Shown here piece by piece: positions 1,863 through 17,172 of a stretch of DNA of 36,312 nucleotides. The translations under genes were made by a program, and so were the position numbers. The notes below the pieces were generated by a model that searched no databases, was not told where the DNA came from, and was given only the letters and a program-made list of their open reading frames with translations. The stretch comes from a virus (Duplodnaviria; Heunggongvirae; Uroviricota; Caudoviricetes), in the IMG/VR virus record IMGVR_UViG_2534681604_000004, one strand, 5' to 3'. Numbering within the stretch: position 1 is the stretch's first letter; each line of letters starts with the position of its first letter.

Positions 1863-2708
1863 ATGCTGGCTAAAGTCACTTTCCTGAGCTGTATAACGAT
1901 GAGCGATTTTACTTTTTCTGGCTATGAATTGGCCTGCTTTGTAACACACTCCGGTCTATCCCGTAGCGCCGGGCATATCCTGTCGCAATGTGCAAATCTC
2001 GCGGCAACAACCAGTGAATACTTCATTCACAAGCCTCACCGCCTGATCGCGGCAGAAACTGGTTATAGCCAATCAACCGTCGTTCGTGCATTCCGTGAAG
2101 CTGTAAACAAAGGAATCCTGTCTGTAGAGATTGTTATCGGCGATCACCGTGAACGTCGCGCTAACCTGTACCGGTTTACACCATCCTTTTTGGCCTTCGC
2201 ACAACAAGCCAAAAATGCGCTGATTGACAGCAAATTAAAGATCTCTTCAGCCGCAACCAAGGTTAAAGCTGTTCTCGCTAAGACATTGGCTTTATTTAAT
2301 TTTTTATCCACACCCCCATGTCAAAATGATACCCCCTCCCCCTGTCAGGATGACGTGGCAATAAAGAATAAGAAGTCACAAATTAAAAAAACAAAAAGAT
2401 CAGTTTCCGGCGGTACCGGAACGACCAGGCTCAAAAATTTGACTTCCTGGATCGCTGAGGCAAAAGCAAAGGCTGACAATCTGCGGTTATCCAAAAAACG
2501 CGCTCAAAAACATGAGTTCAAGCAGAAAGTAGAGGCGGCTGCGCGGAAATATGCTTACCTGAAGAACAAGCGTTCGCCTGATATTGGCGGGATATCAAAC
2601 TTCGATAATCTACCGCATTGCATGACGGTAAACGAAGCTCTTAATGCGGTTTTAGCCAAAAATAAAGATAACGAACAATGGGGTATACCGGCAGGATTCA
2701 GAGGGTGA
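1863..2708 (+). CDS. repL: RepL-like lytic replication protein, 281 aa
   Basis: Track ORF immediately downstream of kilA in the same orientation; length fits recalled P1 RepL. Confidence 0.65.
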   Translation: MLAKVTFLSCITMSDFTFSGYELACFVTHSGLSRSAGHILSQCANLAATTSEYFIHKPHRLIAAETGYSQSTVVRAFREAVNKGILSVEIVIGDHRERRANLYRFTPSFLAFAQQAKNALIDSKLKISSAATKVKAVLAKTLALFNFLSTPPCQNDTPSPCQDDVAIKNKKSQIKKTKRSVSGGTGTTRLKNLTSWIAEAKAKADNLRLSKKRAQKHEFKQKVEAAARKYAYLKNKRSPDIGGISNFDNLPHCMTVNEALNAVLAKNKDNEQWGIPAGFRG

Positions 2709-13592: not shown

Positions 13593-13663
13593 GATCCGGG
13601 ATCTTCTTTGGATCTTCCTAGGTTCTCTTTAGGATCTGTTTATTGGATCTATGCTGTGGATAA
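13593..13663. promoter_or_regulatory. origin-associated GATC cluster (5 GATC in 57 bp) plus DnaA box TGTGGATAA
   Basis: GATC at 13593, 13600, 13611, 13633, 13646; DnaA box at 13655-13663; same order as the recalled P1 oriR (DnaA box, GATC region, iterons, repA). Confidence 0.65.
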
Positions 13664-13706
13664 GTTGAATAAACCGGCCAACAAAGCCGGTTGGAAGGAA
13701 GCCATA

Positions 13707-14099
13707 TTATTCTACGCTTTCGATGAGAAGACCATGTTCATAACATTTAAGCTCATCGCCTTCATACAGGAATTGGTATCCAACACCACCACCTTCCGGC
13801 ACATTAGGGAATAAATCATCACTTACCGAAGAACAAATCACACCAATGCAGCGATCAACACCTTCTCGTTCTTCAGTGCTGAAAAAATCCTCTTCAATAA
13901 GCACTTGATTACATTGCTCATCAGCATAAGTTGGAAATACATGTTCGATACAATCTGGATGTTTTAAACCAAGCTGATCGGCAAGCTCGAAAGCATGACG
14001 GTATTGTTCAGATCCTGGCTTGCCAACAGTGATTTGCTCAATTTTGTAGATTGAAGTCGCTTTGTTGATAGTTTGCTTTACTGTTACTTTATCAGACAT
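13707..14099 (-). CDS. hypothetical protein, 130 aa
   Basis: Track ORF; first gene beyond the origin, last of a five-gene minus-strand operon. Confidence 0.45.
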   Translation of the reverse strand: MSDKVTVKQTINKATSIYKIEQITVGKPGSEQYRHAFELADQLGLKHPDCIEHVFPTYADEQCNQVLIEEDFFSTEEREGVDRCIGVICSSVSDDLFPNVPEGGGVGYQFLYEGDELKCYEHGLLIESVE

Positions 14100-14110
14100 A
14101 AAAATCCCTT

Positions 14111-14443
14111 TTAGTTACTGCTGATAGCGCGGTTGTAATCATTAACGTTGCGATTCTTCCTGTTAATCCCCATCAGCATCGTTTCTGTATCAAGGATATA
14201 GGCTGGCAGATCATCAAAATATTCACTGCTAAACTCTGGCATCCTGCACATAAATGCACTTTTGGGGGCAGGGTGGTTAACCTTTGTCGGCGTCGGCGTT
14301 AAATTCGCTGATCGACTCCCGGAGCAACCGCTGAGTGTCAGCAGGAATACGCTGGCGAACATTACCCGCCGCAACCAGTTGTTTCTGAACTTCAGCTTTT
14401 CGTTCCATTTGTCTGTCTGCATACTTCGCTTGTTCTGATTCAT
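14111..14443 (-). CDS. lipoprotein, o-spanin-like (Rz1-like), start partly embedded in the upstream ORF
   Basis: Lipobox LLTLSGC followed by Pro/Thr-rich TPTPTKVNHPAPK; overlaps 14277-14699 by 167 nt in a different frame. Confidence 0.5.
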   Translation of the reverse strand: MNQNKRSMQTDKWNEKLKFRNNWLRRVMFASVFLLTLSGCSGSRSANLTPTPTKVNHPAPKSAFMCRMPEFSSEYFDDLPAYILDTETMLMGINRKNRNVNDYNRAISSN

Positions 14444-14699
14444 TTTTCACTTCCTGGCTGTGAAAATGTTGATCCGCTCTATTCATCGTCTCAATGGTTT
14501 GGTTAAGATCAATGATTGACTTATCGCGCTCCTTAACAGCCTGATCAAGGCTGCCAATTTTCTCCAAGGCTTGCTTTAACTGATAACGTTCCCATGCAAA
14601 CCCAGCACCAACAAGTGCGCAAATCAGGACAAGAACACCAGTAACAGCAAGTTTCTCCTTCAAAGACAAAGCTGTTTTTAACGTTGAAAAAAACGACAT
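14277..14699 (-). CDS. membrane-anchored coiled-coil protein, i-spanin-like (Rz-like), 140 aa
   Basis: N-terminal TM helix LAVTGVLVLICALVGAGFAW, then charged helical periplasmic region; overlaps the lipoprotein ORF. Confidence 0.5.
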   Translation of the reverse strand: MSFFSTLKTALSLKEKLAVTGVLVLICALVGAGFAWERYQLKQALEKIGSLDQAVKERDKSIIDLNQTIETMNRADQHFHSQEVKNESEQAKYADRQMERKAEVQKQLVAAGNVRQRIPADTQRLLRESISEFNADADKG

Positions 14700-14738
14700 T
14701 TCTTCCTCCTGAAGAAAAATTATCTGTGAAGTCCTTTG

Positions 14739-15527
14739 TTAAAGTGTCGCCTTGTTTAATTCATCAAGAACAGAATCAGGAACCAAAGCTGCGACTGCGC
14801 TGGCGGTGCTGGCCTTATTTGCTGATGCTTCCGCCAGCGCGGTTCCGATAGCATGGTTATAAGCAGTTATGGCTACGCTGGCGCTTTCCTTCGCTCGTTC
14901 ATACTGCTGTTGCAATGCTGCTACCGGTACTGTTGTCTGGTCGAAAAAAGCACCAAATTGTTCAGTTGCTTCCTTCAGTGCTTCAACTTGTTGTTCTGTC
15001 AGTGATGGTGGGGGAGTGACTGCGCCACCACCGGAATCAGAGCCTGACGAGCTTCCTGAGCCTGTGTTAAGGGTCTGGTTAATGTCCCCCATAGCAGCGA
15101 CTAAACTCGACGTATTAAGCGCATTTACAGCGTCCTCAAGCGATTTCGTTGTAGTCGCGTCGCCAATGGCAATAGAGATCGGCAGTTCTGAAACTTCTCG
15201 CTCATTAGCACGACAGTAAACATTCCAACCAATATCGAGTTGAAGGAGCATTGACAGATCAGCATAACCAGCCAACAGGTCCGCGTGCTGAGTTGCCAGC
15301 CCTCCAATATTCGTTAAACCGGTTGCGGTTGTTCTGATCGTTGAAACATAGCTGGTAATAGTGTTGGGATAGACAATTGTATCCAGAATTAATCCGGTCA
15401 ATTCTTCTGCAAGCAGTTTTGCTGTGTTAGCACTGTTTCGTGCCGATGTTATGGCACCAGGTGTTTTCATCCCACCGGCGGCGGCCAATTTTTTATATGC
15501 GGATAACTGGTAGTCTTTTTCCAGCAT
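14739..15527 (-). CDS. hypothetical protein with Ser/Gly-rich linker, about 262 aa from internal start
   Basis: Track ORF trimmed to the Met preceded by AGGAG at 5-nt spacing (start codon 15527-15525). Confidence 0.5.
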   Translation of the reverse strand: MLEKDYQLSAYKKLAAAGGMKTPGAITSARNSANTAKLLAEELTGLILDTIVYPNTITSYVSTIRTTATGLTNIGGLATQHADLLAGYADLSMLLQLDIGWNVYCRANEREVSELPISIAIGDATTTKSLEDAVNALNTSSLVAAMGDINQTLNTGSGSSSGSDSGGGAVTPPPSLTEQQVEALKEATEQFGAFFDQTTVPVAALQQQYERAKESASVAITAYNHAIGTALAEASANKASTASAVAALVPDSVLDELNKATL

Positions 15528-15535
15528 GATATCTC

Positions 15536-15820
15536 CTAACTTACCTGAACCAGGCCGTCTCCGGCTGCAACGGTAGAGCCGCATGAAACAGGATCACCAA
15601 CGCATACGATCCCTTTCCCGTTGACGGTAAACCATGCCCTGGTTGATATAGCTTGCCCGACGTGCGTGCTGTTCCCATCGGTATGCTGTGCATATTGCTT
15701 ACCATCAACTAACACTTCGACTCCGTTGACTTTAAGTAGTGGTTCGCTCTCTACGGGAGGCCTGGATGGGAATCCTCCGTGCCCCGAACAAATGCTGTCT
15801 TTTGTTGCAATACTCGCCAC
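15536..15820 (-). CDS. PAAR-like repeat protein (putative spike-tip protein), 94 aa
   Basis: Gly-rich repeats SGHGGFP / VNGVEV / VNGKGIVCVGDPVSCG resemble the PAAR fold signature. Confidence 0.55.
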   Translation of the reverse strand: MASIATKDSICSGHGGFPSRPPVESEPLLKVNGVEVLVDGKQYAQHTDGNSTHVGQAISTRAWFTVNGKGIVCVGDPVSCGSTVAAGDGLVQVS

Positions 15821-15901
15821 ATCACCACCAATTGTTTGCTCTGATTTTTGTTATTTTAACTTAGGTTGTTTGTGGTCTACATGGCGTTTACTTATTATAA
15901 A

Positions 15902-15918
15902 ATTGCTCTAATAAATAT
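15902..15918 (+). promoter_or_regulatory. C1-repressor operator-like site in a divergent promoter region (ATTGCTCTAATAAATAT)
   Basis: 16/17 match to recalled C1 operator consensus. Confidence 0.6.
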
Positions 15919-15989
15919 TGTTTTTTGTGTCGTGTTTTCGGTACCATTCAGCCATCGCCCTTCAATGGGCATTTGTTTGGAGTCGTCAG

Positions 15990-16274
15990 ATGCAGATGGA
16001 GCTAATAAGCCGCAAAGAGTTCGATAGCCGTGTAACCAGCGGTGAACTCGACAACTTGCAGGCTATTAAGGTGAAAGAAGGCTTTTGCCTCATTGGGAAT
16101 CAGAGCGGAACAAATCGCGTTTTTATGCTTCGCCGTACGGATTTGAAGCCATTTGTCTGGAAGAACGAAATTGGTCCCAGCTCATACGCTCAAACGAGGG
16201 GGTGCCACAACCTGGCATTTTTCTACAAAGACGAGCTTTCTGTGGTTGATATTCAAGGGTTACAACATGTTTAA
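15990..16274 (+). CDS. small protein upstream of hrdC, about 94 aa
   Basis: Internal ATG with GGAG RBS in track ORF 15918-16274; position fits recalled P1 uhr. Confidence 0.4.
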
Positions 16275-17172
16275 GCACTGGAAAAACATTACTATTTATA
16301 AACTTTCTCGTGAGGCGGATCTGACCGACTTAGAAGATAAAAAGAAAATGATCCTTTTCACGCCATGCGGTAGCCAGGATATGGCCAAGTTCGGTTTTGT
16401 ATCTCCATTTGGTGATAATTCCGAAGTTATCGCTATGCATGGAAATGGTTTTATCCTTGTTGAAGCAAAGCGCGAAACAAAAATTCTTCCCCCGCCGGTT
16501 ATCCAGCGAGCTATTCAAGAAAAAATTGAAAAACTTGAGCAAGAACAAGCGCGTAAACTGAAGAAAACAGAGAAGGACTCCCTGAAAGACGAAGTTCTGC
16601 ATTCTCTTCTGCCACGGGCTTTTTCAAAGTTTTCTGTTATCCAGGCGATCTACGACGGTTCAACTAAACGCATCTATATCAATGCCTGTGCGCGGCAGGC
16701 AGAGGATATGCTCGCGCTTATGCGTAAGTCTCTGGGTTCTCTTCCTGTTGTGCCCCTAAGTGTTGAAAATCCAATTGAGTTAACGCTGACCGACTGGGTA
16801 CGTGATGCTAGTGCTCCACAGGGATTTCAAATGGGGGATGCGGCAGAACTTAAGGCTGTGCTTGAGGATGGCGGTATCGCCCGAGTGAAAAAGCAGGATT
16901 TGGGAAGCGATGAAATTTCCACACACCTGGAAGCTGGCAAGCTCGTCACAAAGTTGGCTCTCGACTGGCAGAACCGCATTAAATTTACACTGGACCATAA
17001 CTTCAGCCTTACCAGCGTCAAATTTGCGGATGAATTGCTTGAGCAGAACTCTGATATTGATAGTGAAGATGTTGCGCAGCGACTGGACGCAGATTTCTTC
17101 CTGTTAACCAGTGAAATTTCGTGCCTGGTTGATGCTCTGGTAAATGCCCTGGGCGGAGAGGCTAAGCAGTGA
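16267..17172 (+). CDS. hrdC: RdgC-like recombination-associated protein, 301 aa
   Basis: From internal ATG; [16 protein letters not shown]...[15 protein letters not shown] aligns along its length to recalled E. coli RdgC. Confidence 0.88.

Follow-up and report, generated by a model that had tools for sequence, protein, structure and literature searches.

The 36,312-nucleotide stretch of DNA analysed here (the window) is, on sequence comparison, a P1-like phage-plasmid, and the five minus-strand genes under study are orthologous to the P1 late genes upfC-upfB-ppfA-mlp-upfA. This is an ordinary, already catalogued late operon of a P1-like plasmid prophage, made up of two spike-tip proteins, an overlapped PpfA/Mlp pair and one further protein. 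We consider it likely that a single account covers the whole: a late gene block in which UpfC and UpfB form the spike tip, PpfA and Mlp are an overlapped spanin, transcription starts at Lpa-type late promoters, and the nearby C1 operator belongs to the divergent promoter Pdmt.

A catalogued late operon beside oriR

Across the block, the window shares 95–96% nucleotide identity with P1 at 62.9–65.5 kb, and likewise with P1 relatives. Related records name the five genes upfA, mlp/Rz1, ppfA/Rz, upfB and upfC. All the open reading frames are present on the minus strand (Table 1) and oriR adjoins upfA in the orthologous P1 record, in agreement with an earlier note on this DNA that had described a co-directional five-gene block next to the plasmid origin. 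The orthology and the gene anatomy are directly supported. The note had also placed the PpfA/Mlp pair well away from the other lysis genes, and the P1 map agrees: lyz lies at 20.3 kb, lydA/lydB at 30.4–31.2 kb and ppfA/mlp at 63.4–63.9 kb. Published reports describe ppfA/mlp as extremely conserved among P1-like phage-plasmids and the repA-upfA region as variable.

The orthologous P1 proteins, PpfA (gp064) and Mlp (gp063), have the same lengths as those of the window, with the same 167-nt +1 overlap, lipobox and neighbours (upfA, upfB, upfC, oriR and Op68). Only point substitutions separate the two pairs: PpfA is 95–96% identical, and five of the 110 Mlp residues are changed, for example at 6–11 and 109. 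P1 is entered in SpaninDB as ‘ovl’, with gp064 as the i-spanin (Kongari 2018). In Bednarek 2022, ppfA/mlp are given as the spanin genes of P1 with reference to Summer 2007, which lists the pair as an overlapped two-component spanin. As a discovery the feature therefore carries little weight, the pair having been catalogued as the P1 spanin since 2007 and UpfC/UpfB placed in the baseplate in 2026; because the P1 pair is already in SpaninDB and Bednarek 2022, the earlier note had rediscovered it. For annotation, two papers swap the labels of the pair: the lipoprotein Mlp corresponds to the o-spanin and PpfA to the i-spanin.

Table 1 Features of the block and its flanks (positions in the window)
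Feature	Position	Strand	Description
Terminator-like hairpin	13678–13694	minus	12 nt past the upfA stop codon, at the oriR edge; weak candidate from a consensus scan only
upfA	13707–14099	minus	130-aa protein, last gene of the block; matches phrog_1453 (unknown function) only
mlp	14111–14443	minus	Predicted o-spanin of 110 aa, precursor of an outer-membrane lipoprotein; 71 aa when mature, including lipidated Cys40
Dual-coding overlap	14277–14443	minus	167 nt; frame 0 encodes the PpfA C-terminus, frame +1 the Mlp signal peptide and lipobox
ppfA	14277–14699	minus	Predicted i-spanin of 140 aa; type II inner-membrane protein whose periplasmic domain is helical
Late-promoter-like site 5′ of ppfA	14719–14740	minus	Overlaps the upfB stop codon
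upfB	14739–15527	minus	262-aa baseplate ‘tripod’ protein
upfC	15536–15820	minus	94-aa PAAR-like tail spike-tip protein, T4 gp5.4 counterpart
Weaker late-promoter-like site 5′ of upfC	15853–15874	minus	32 nt before the GTG start codon
C1 repressor operator	15902–15918	plus	ATTGCTCTAATAAATAT, one mismatch to consensus; orthologue of P1 Op68/Odmt
Pdmt	15918–15947	plus	Promoter of the divergent uhr-hrdC-dmt; −35 TTGTTT, −10 TACCAT; by homology to P1

The ppfA/mlp overlap encodes two proteins

The earlier note had reported a lipoprotein gene with a Pro-rich stretch (14111–14443) overlapping ppfA (14277–14699) out of frame, and this is what the sequence holds: mlp starts inside ppfA in the +1 frame and runs 166 nt past the ppfA stop codon, the gene arrangement of the overlapped class. 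No stop codon interrupts the +1 frame for 110 codons, whereas the +2 frame has six over the same stretch. Several gene callers omit mlp or call only a 46–52 aa tail, as might be expected if the frame were a chance opening across the end of ppfA and no gene at all. We regard that reading as extremely improbable. A position-by-position comparison with four relatives (L084, L085, L087 and L088; 59–64% PpfA identity) showed no indels, each ppfA-mlp unit measuring exactly 589 nt. Where mlp extends past ppfA, third codon positions are 50–64% identical, against 80–89% at first and second positions; because substitutions follow the mlp codon phase, the chance-frame reading is refuted. The overlap itself retains 75–78% nucleotide identity, compared with 57–61% for the part that encodes PpfA only, and the mature domain of Mlp 77–79% identity, against about 60% for PpfA. 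The Shine-Dalgarno sequence, ATG and lipobox are conserved too.

Among close loci, the mlp reading frame is kept in 70 of 71 and the lipobox LSGC in all 71. Two more distant relatives (L091 and L092; 46–53% PpfA identity) keep the +1 reading frame, the lipobox and Cys41, and their frames end no more than 3 nt from the same position. The overlapped frame, Shine-Dalgarno sequence, lipobox and second cysteine are conserved down to 46% PpfA identity. This dual-coding conservation is direct evidence that the ppfA/mlp overlap is not due to chance, and annotators should be aware that gene callers often miss or shorten mlp.

PpfA and Mlp have the anatomy of a spanin pair

The proposal of an overlapped i-spanin/o-spanin architecture was borne out by the overlap, a predicted membrane helix, a lipobox, matches of both proteins to spanin families and the SpaninDB entry. 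The ATG of ppfA is preceded by AGGAGG. The strongest hydrophobic stretch of PpfA (residues 17–35; 19-residue Kyte-Doolittle mean 2.48) is preceded by Lys8, Lys14 and Lys16, predicting the single N-terminal membrane helix, N-in and C-out, of an i-spanin. AlphaFold2 models a helix at residues 13–110, a break at 111–119 and a second helix at 120–137 (mean pLDDT 70), which would give the mostly alpha-helical periplasmic domain, typically of two segments and a linker, of such proteins. Many i-spanins lack a predicted coiled coil (Kongari 2018). PpfA lacks cysteine in its periplasmic portion. The most conserved region of PpfA is the one encoded in the overlap: residues 86–140 share 75–76% identity with distant relatives, compared with 49–55% for residues 1–85.

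Mlp has AGGAAG 5′ of its ATG, and its basic n-region and 11-residue hydrophobic core lead to the lipobox LSGC with Cys40, followed by Ser-Gly. The lipoprotein signal anticipated in the earlier note is therefore present, and Ser at +2 is not an inner-membrane retention residue, consistent with the predicted lipidation and outer-membrane destination of an o-spanin. The corresponding residues in relatives are LSAC, LNAC, LNGC or LVAC, and Kongari 2018 lists LNGC as an o-spanin lipobox. The Pro-rich stretch LTPTPTKVNHPAP lies C-terminal to the lipobox. Cys66, in the motif FMCRMPEF, is kept in all six distant relatives and would supply the periplasmic cysteine, at least one of which is expected in either spanin subunit.

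Profile searches, which the earlier note had suggested as a check, linked both proteins to families annotated as spanins. PpfA matches phrog_89 (‘Rz-like spanin’, E 5e-24), phrog_739 and phrog_214; Mlp matches phrog_30284 (‘Rz-like spanin’, E 5e-75) and phrog_456 (E 2.5e-5), all these family names being annotations. The Pfam families for lambda Rz (Phage_lysis) and Rz1 gave no match even at E up to 1, only noise-level coiled-coil matches appearing. The NCBIfam models for P2 LysB (TIGR03495; 18.1 against a cut-off of 92.75 bits, E 0.0026) and LysC (P2_Rz1, NF038368; 14.8 against 27 bits, E 0.025) were matched below threshold. A profile search of 1.84 billion representatives with PpfA returned 37 matches. 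Most were fragments or coiled-coil noise; three were full-length distant relatives, which also match several Rz-like spanin PHROGs. BLAST-level, word-indexed and profile searches found PpfA relatives solely in P1-like elements of about 90–100 kb, and thus no PpfA homologue in a classical lysis cassette.

The P2 LysB/LysC pair sits in a lysis cassette. It has the same overlapped architecture and protein types as the window pair and a weak profile likeness, although the window pair scores far under the family cut-offs and is unlinked to other lysis genes. Lambda Rz/Rz1, the prototype spanin, is likewise a type II helical inner-membrane protein with a small Pro-containing lipoprotein in the +1 frame. 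In lambda, however, the second gene is embedded, whereas the window pair is overlapped and lies outside a lysis cassette; mature Mlp has 71 residues with a conserved C-terminal domain, compared with 40 for Rz1, and PpfA lacks periplasmic cysteines where lambda Rz has two. The T4 spanin pair resembles PpfA/Mlp in having no periplasmic cysteine in the i-spanin (Kongari 2018).

From this anatomy we infer spanin activity: PpfA/Mlp probably break the outer membrane at lysis. The N-terminal helix of PpfA would anchor it in the inner membrane, with the long helical rod spanning the periplasm. Mlp would receive a lipid on Cys40 and travel to the outer membrane, and the conserved C-terminal regions of the two proteins may mediate their binding. 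After the holin LydA and the endolysin Lyz had cleared away the cell wall, this complex would break the outer membrane open, probably through fusion of the two membranes.

UpfC and UpfB are tail-tip proteins

The earlier note had called the first gene of the block PAAR-like, correctly. UpfC differs at one position (Val54 for Gly) from chain A, ‘UpfC’, of PDB 9vyi over 94 residues (E 1e-59). It also matches T4 gp5.4 (5iv5 and 4ku0; E about 2e-6), phrog_281 (E 7.6e-30) and a chain of PDB 4jiv (E 8e-4), which we take to be a PAAR entry. The PAAR profile search put forward at the same time gave a more divided answer: the match is of PAAR type, but it stays below threshold in both Pfam (PAAR_motif, 24.5 bits against a cut-off of 27) and the NCBIfam PAAR model.

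The virion role of UpfC is directly supported by cryo-EM of P1, in which monomeric UpfC sits on the gp5 trimer, as gp5.4 does on the trimeric gp5 spike of T4; this match and tip position make it a PAAR-like spike-tip protein. Gonzales 2022 also predicted the relationship to gp5.4. Unlike the PAAR proteins of type VI secretion systems, UpfC is part of a virion and not an effector carrier.

UpfB had been counted as one of ‘two unknowns’ in the block, but it is a described baseplate component. The P1 cryo-EM study placed three UpfB trimers at the spike tip by fitting an AlphaFold3 model into medium-resolution density, and called this ‘tripod’, which P1 has in addition, novel. By homology, UpfC would cap the tail spike of the window’s phage as a single PAAR-like cone, with the three UpfB trimers at the same tip.

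The P1 record starts upfB at 15584, giving a longer protein of 281 aa. A GGAG lies 6 nt upstream of the ATG at 15527, relatives have 258–260 aa and start 9–10 nt after upfC, and the alignment to phrog_1559 (E 2e-133) begins at residue 20 of the long reading frame. These features point to 15527 as most likely the start, and annotation should probably begin the gene at this downstream ATG; upfB would therefore not overlap upfC.

The block resembles late genes and has late-promoter-like sites

P1 late promoters that depend on Lpa have a 9-bp −22 box (consensus AAGTGACTT), a 4-nt spacer and a −10 hexamer, with no −35 element. As a plain 9-mer search for the consensus found 11 matches against 8 expected, not enriched over chance, we used a 22-nt weight matrix built from six late promoters annotated in the P1 record. 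The site upstream of ppfA, with the −22 box AAAGGACTT (14737–14729; 7 of 9 positions agreeing with consensus), 4 nt and the −10 hexamer GATAAT (14724–14719), scored 14.2 with this matrix and ranked 6th of 72,582 window positions; a random 60-mer reaches this score with P about 1.5e-4. Every one of the 71 close loci has a site this far from the ATG, and so do all six distant relatives (scores 9.7–20.1); L084 and L085 carry the exact −22 consensus. In the P1 record the same −10 belongs to P1ppfA, predicted there as a sigma-70 promoter and not annotated as a late one. Going beyond that prediction, ppfA-mlp-upfA appears, from site conservation, to have its own Lpa-type late promoter.

The candidate upstream of upfC combines the −22 box AAACAACCT, 4 nt and TAAAAT (15858–15853). 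In the window its score is a weak 5.8, which places it 27th of 72,582 positions (a random 100-mer does as well with P about 0.03). Of the 63 close loci scored, 58 reach 9.5–15.0 at the same position, L085, L087 and L092 reach 11.8–13.5, and the −10 is conserved in the alignment. The P1 record annotates no late promoter directly upstream of sit.

Late RNA kinetics are directly supported by published RNA-seq of P1vir. Log fold changes at 10 and 30 min were 4.9 and 10.6 for upfC, 4.1 and 11.1 for upfB, 5.6 and 11.2 for ppfA, 4.1 and 10.5 for mlp, and 5.2 and 11.2 for upfA. The five genes resemble the late genes 23 (5.4 and 12.1), lyz (6.1 and 11.3) and lydA (5.2 and 11.8), and differ from uhr, hrdC and dmt, which are already high at 10 min (8.6–9.4, then 11.1–12.0).

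The earlier note had the block driven from a divergent promoter containing a C1 operator. The operator is there. The 17-bp asymmetric consensus ATTGCTCTAATAAATTT has seven matches in the window against 0.14 expected, and the one at 15902–15918 is a C1 operator of the P1 type that aligns with the Odmt annotated in P1 and is conserved in distant relatives. However, in the P1 record Op68 is the operator of the opposite-strand promoter Pdmt, to which the intergenic operator would belong here as well; Pdmt coordinates were transferred from NC_005856 through an indel-free alignment.

If a C1-repressed sigma-70 promoter in this intergenic region nevertheless drove the block, the operon would be early and directly under repressor control. 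A perfect TATAAT does lie just downstream of the operator on the minus strand of the window (15899–15894), and operators elsewhere in P1 also adjoin late promoters, such as Omat, whose annotation reads ‘controls expression of mat’, and O26. The hexamer is not conserved, however: P1 has TGCAAT there, TATAAT was found neither in the 77 close loci whose operator flank could be read nor in distant relatives, and it has no usable −35. We rejected it as a C1-controlled promoter because of this lack of conservation. The late-promoter-like sites are conserved instead of a C1-linked promoter, and the RNA-seq separates the late block from the early uhr/hrdC/dmt. On this evidence direct C1 control of the block is unlikely, and the claim in the earlier note is not supported. 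The conserved site upstream of ppfA, together with the published late kinetics, places the spanin genes in the late programme, and we infer that transcription most likely proceeds from Lpa-dependent late promoters 5′ of upfC and, separately, of ppfA.

Possible other envelope roles for PpfA and Mlp

Counting against the spanin reading are dispensability for plaques under CRISPRi, the lack of a Pfam match to lambda Rz or Rz1 and the far sub-threshold P2 LysB/LysC scores, the absence of a periplasmic cysteine in PpfA and the absence of an adjoining holin or endolysin gene. In the published CRISPRi study, P1 plaques still formed on targeting each of the five genes (mlp 0.24/0.19, ppfA 1.3/1.2), and lambda Rz was scored as essential.

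It is improbable, in our estimate, that PpfA and Mlp, with UpfA, have a different or additional role in the envelope, such as exclusion or helping the UpfC/UpfB tip, with the outer membrane breached in some other way. One form of this idea, raised in the earlier note, is that the pair is an envelope-acting superinfection-exclusion system or serves the prophage otherwise, and is not a lysis device. Its lack of linkage to holin and endolysin genes, its dispensability for plaques and its extreme conservation among P1-like phage-plasmids would all suit such a role. Spanin mutants, however, including those in lambda Rz/Rz1, also form plaques under ordinary conditions. The family matches of the pair are all to spanins, save phrog_15803 (‘lipoprotein’), phrog_3999 (unknown function) and a marginal match to a virion protein; no family of exclusion or defence proteins was matched, and PADLOC returned no defence-family match, only a meaningless one of 12.8 bits. 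Expression of the pair late in the lytic cycle, with its late-promoter-like site, also argues against exclusion, which would not require a conserved pair of type II membrane protein and lipoprotein in the +1 overlap typical of spanins. The suggestion found no support in these data and is very unlikely to be correct.

Another form is that PpfA, Mlp and/or UpfA work with UpfC/UpfB, for example in assembly or envelope penetration, which would explain the shared gene block. The genes lie on the same strand as the two baseplate-tip genes and are tightly spaced with them, and UpfA has no assigned function. Yet neither PpfA nor Mlp is among the virion components identified by the cryo-EM study, and the main text of the paper on the virion proteome (Gonzales 2022) mentions neither name. 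The membrane-targeting signals of both proteins are hard to square with tail assembly in the cytoplasm, and the conserved promoter-like site of ppfA sets it apart from upfC-upfB. We give this version only the slightest chance.

UpfA and the downstream end of the block

UpfA gave no match in Pfam, NCBIfam or PADLOC, and its single-sequence AlphaFold2 model has a pLDDT of 52. Homologues of 42–50% identity occur in L084 and L092; UpfA is absent in L085 and L091, no UpfA-like gene is called in L087 and L088, and the remaining homologues found are too close or frameshifted. A PF13876 gene lies directly 3′ of mlp in L084, L087 and L088. A generic scan of the window for sigma-70 promoters and terminators gave sites no more numerous than in shuffled sequence; the terminator-like hairpin past upfA has a 5-bp stem, a 7-nt loop and a T-rich tail.

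The P1 upfC-upfA gene block

Megablast with window positions 13600-16300 returned 18 phage records, P1, P7, RCS47 and SJ46 among them, with query coverage of 80% or more and identities of 94-97%. The matching stretch of the P1 reference NC_005856 (62.9-65.5 kb) has the order oriR (the plasmid origin), upfA, mlp, ppfA, upfB, upfC, and the C1 operator Op68/Odmt with promoter Pdmt, followed on the opposite strand by uhr, hrdC and dmt. From these matches and this order, the window is, on sequence, a P1-like phage-plasmid carrying the P1 upfC-upfA gene block, and in P1 the complete feature has been described before; some matching records already name the ppfA-mlp pair Rz/Rz1 or "Rz-like spanin". 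A published survey of 77 P1-like phage-plasmids counts mlp, ppfA and upfC in its set of the 21 most conserved genes. The reading frames lie where the earlier note had placed them, tightly packed, with gaps of 8 nt (upfC-upfB, counting from ATG 15527), 39 nt (upfB-ppfA) and 11 nt (mlp-upfA), and a weak terminator-like hairpin stands 12 nt downstream of upfA.

Coordinates of features in the window
Feature	Position	Strand	Details
upfA	13707-14099	-	
mlp	14111-14443	-	110 aa; ATG preceded by AGGAAG
ppfA	14277-14699	-	140 aa; ATG preceded by AGGAGG
upfC	15536-15820	-	
Late-promoter-like site	14740-14719	-	AACAAAGGACTTCACAGATAAT; matrix score 14.2, rank 6 of 72,582 positions
Second late-promoter-like site	15874-15853	-	32 nt upstream of upfC; score 5.8, weak in the window
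Further matrix match	28576-28597	-	AACAAGTGACTGGTGATAACCT; score 19.6
Further matrix match	1863-1884	-	GGAAAGTGACTTTAGCCAGCAT; score 14.2
C1 operator	15902-15918		one mismatch
TATAAT	15894-15899	-	perfect; directly after the C1 operator; TGCAAT in P1
dmt ORF	17169-20456	+	1095 aa versus 754 aa in P1
tRNA-Ser(tga)	21311-21397		
78-aa membrane protein	21661-21897		
275-aa lipoprotein	21878-22705		SPFH/Band_7 domain; lipobox LTGC; overlaps the 78-aa protein gene
tRNA-Met	22733-22808		

The overlapped mlp frame is conserved

PpfA has a single strongly hydrophobic stretch (aa 17-35) preceded by three lysines. Its AlphaFold2 model (14-sequence alignment, mean pLDDT 70) has two helices, aa 13-110 and 120-137, with a break between them; this predicted layout is the usual one for an i-spanin. 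The mlp ATG lies 256 nt into ppfA, in the +1 frame, giving a 167-nt overlap. Mlp begins with a basic n-region, a hydrophobic core and the lipobox LSGC (Cys40, with Ser at +2), and also carries a Pro-rich stretch (LTPTPTKVNHPAP) and one more cysteine, Cys66.

We compared six divergent relatives (PpfA identity 46-64%, contigs of ~59-98 kb, same neighbours). In all six the +1 ORF persists: its Shine-Dalgarno sequence and ATG are conserved, residue 41 of the open frame is a lipobox cysteine, and the Mlp motif FMCRMPEF...YFDDLPAY...INRKNRN is retained. Four of them were aligned position by position; in these the ppfA-mlp unit measures exactly 589 nt, without a single indel. Within the mlp-only part of these four, identity is 50-64% at third positions against 80-89% at first and second positions, the codon phase of mlp. 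Nucleotide identity is 75-78% in the overlap versus 57-61% in the ppfA-only part, and mature Mlp is 77-79% identical versus ~60% for whole PpfA. Among the close loci, the mlp ORF is intact in 70 of 71 and LSGC is present in every one. By these comparisons, the mlp frame is under selection. The 46-52 aa mlp tail reported by some gene callers is wrong, as the full +1 frame is conserved and under selection; a gene-caller bias against such overlapped genes is already known (Kongari et al.).

PpfA and Mlp as a probable spanin pair

Profile searches support the earlier spanin proposal. PpfA matched phrog_89, "Rz-like spanin" (E 5e-24), and two further spanin PHROGs, and Mlp matched phrog_30284 (E 5e-75) and phrog_456 (E 2.5e-5), both of the same name. 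A Pfam search gave no Rz or Rz1 match for either protein, and the NCBIfam models for P2 LysB and LysC matched only far under their cut-offs, placing the pair outside the sequence families of both lambda Rz/Rz1 and P2 LysB/LysC. The PpfA family is small (37 matches among 1.84 billion representatives searched with a profile); three distant full-length relatives share its layout and also match spanin PHROGs.

P1 is entered as "ovl", with gp064 as i-spanin, by Kongari et al. 2018. Bednarek et al. 2022 identify ppfA and mlp as the spanin genes of P1, whose operon is not linked to the remaining lysis genes; the assignment comes from predicted features and credits Summer et al. 2007. In that paper, as in a 2025 bioRxiv preprint (supplementary table), ppfA is called the o-spanin and mlp the i-spanin. 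This labelling is reversed: the lipobox is in Mlp and the N-terminal membrane helix in PpfA.

In published CRISPRi knock-downs of each of the five genes P1 plaques still form, which is compatible with a spanin pair because spanins are dispensable under ordinary laboratory conditions (Bednarek et al. 2022). PpfA and Mlp likely act by the spanin mechanism. The exclusion system that the earlier note offered as an alternative, or a defence or other envelope role, is very improbable: PHROG and defence-family searches gave no family-level match for exclusion or defence, and such a role does not fit the late expression of ppfA and mlp. The reading as an overlapped spanin pair with a PAAR-like protein was largely right.

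UpfC, UpfB and UpfA

UpfC differs from "UpfC" of PDB 9vyi at one position over 94 aa (Val54 for Gly). It also matches T4 gp5.4 (E ~2e-6) and a chain of PDB entry 4jiv, a PAAR entry. In a 2026 P1 cryo-EM study a UpfC monomer sits on the gp5 trimer, capping it as T4 gp5.4 does. The PAAR-like call was therefore right, and UpfC is a virion part. Gonzales et al. 2022 had already predicted the gp5.4 relationship, and plaques still formed after their upfC deletion. In the cryo-EM study, UpfB is assigned to a "tripod" of three trimers at the tip of the spike, by fitting an AlphaFold3 model into density of medium resolution.

The P1 reference starts upfB at an upstream ATG (15584), overlapping upfC by 49 nt. 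The start is most likely ATG 15527 (262 aa, gene 14739-15527 on the minus strand), since the PHROG profile alignment begins at residue 20 of the longer ORF, this ATG follows a GGAG and is the start in one P1 record, and the products of relatives have 258-260 aa, starting 9-10 nt past upfC.

UpfA matched only a PHROG of unknown function, is variable or missing among relatives, and gave a single-sequence structure model of poor quality. The slot between mlp and repA varies among the divergent relatives (L084 4600-5441; L087 and L088 4597-4962; L092 4604-4990), in agreement with the published P1-like phage-plasmid survey, which reports repA-upfA as a variable region. A PF13876 (Phage_gp49_66) gene immediately follows mlp in L084, L087 and L088, and in L084 that gene is in turn followed by a UpfA homologue (42% identity); in L092 a UpfA homologue (50%) immediately follows mlp, and in L085 and L091 no gene was called in the slot.

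Late transcription of the block

The earlier note had the five genes driven from a divergent promoter containing a C1 operator. The operator is real, one of seven C1-operator sites in the window (0.14 expected), and is kept in distant relatives, but the P1 record ties it to Pdmt, on the strand opposite upfC. The TATAAT adjoining it on the upfC strand would also favour direct C1 control, yet is present beside the operator in none of 77 close loci with a readable flank, nor in the distant relatives. In P1vir RNA-seq (supplement of PMC8201110), the log fold change of the five genes rises from 4.1-5.6 at 10 min to 10.5-11.2 at 30 min, the kinetics of the known late genes gene 23, sit, lyz and lydA, whereas uhr, hrdC and dmt reach 8.6-9.4 by 10 min. 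Direct C1 control of the block is accordingly unlikely, and the promoter attribution probably wrong.

A 22-nt weight matrix was built from six annotated P1 late promoters (LPlyz, LP23, LP26, LPpmgL, LPdar and LPmat) and retrieved the LP23 and LP26/LPpmgL orthologues in the window. The site upstream of ppfA is strong (P ~1.5e-4 for a random 60-mer); it overlaps the stop codon of upfB, and ~19 nt separate its end from the ppfA ATG. This element keeps its distance in all 71 close loci and all six distant relatives, two of which have the exact consensus box AAGTGACTT. For the site upstream of upfC, 58 of the 63 close loci scored give values of 9.5-15.0, and three distant relatives give 11.8-13.5. 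We infer that the block probably has two Lpa-dependent late start points, upstream of ppfA and of upfC. C1 acts on late P1 genes via lpa, and its control of the block would then be indirect, by that route.

The dmt region

Within the C5-methylase half of the enlarged dmt methyltransferase, the Pfam matches are Hint_2 at aa 77-126 and LAGLIDADG_3 at aa 298-362. There appears to be an intein with a homing-endonuclease domain at ~aa 77-421, placed at the catalytic Pro-Cys motif because the sequence reads GGTP/CFTAGH...VVHN/CQAFS (slashes, junctions). The same insert occurs in 133 plasmid and 5 phage records (e.g. RCS47), none of which, among the matches listed, names an intein. Downstream of dmt (window 20465-22810), where no P1-like plp or upl ORF is recognisable, lie the tRNA, membrane protein and SPFH lipoprotein genes of the table.
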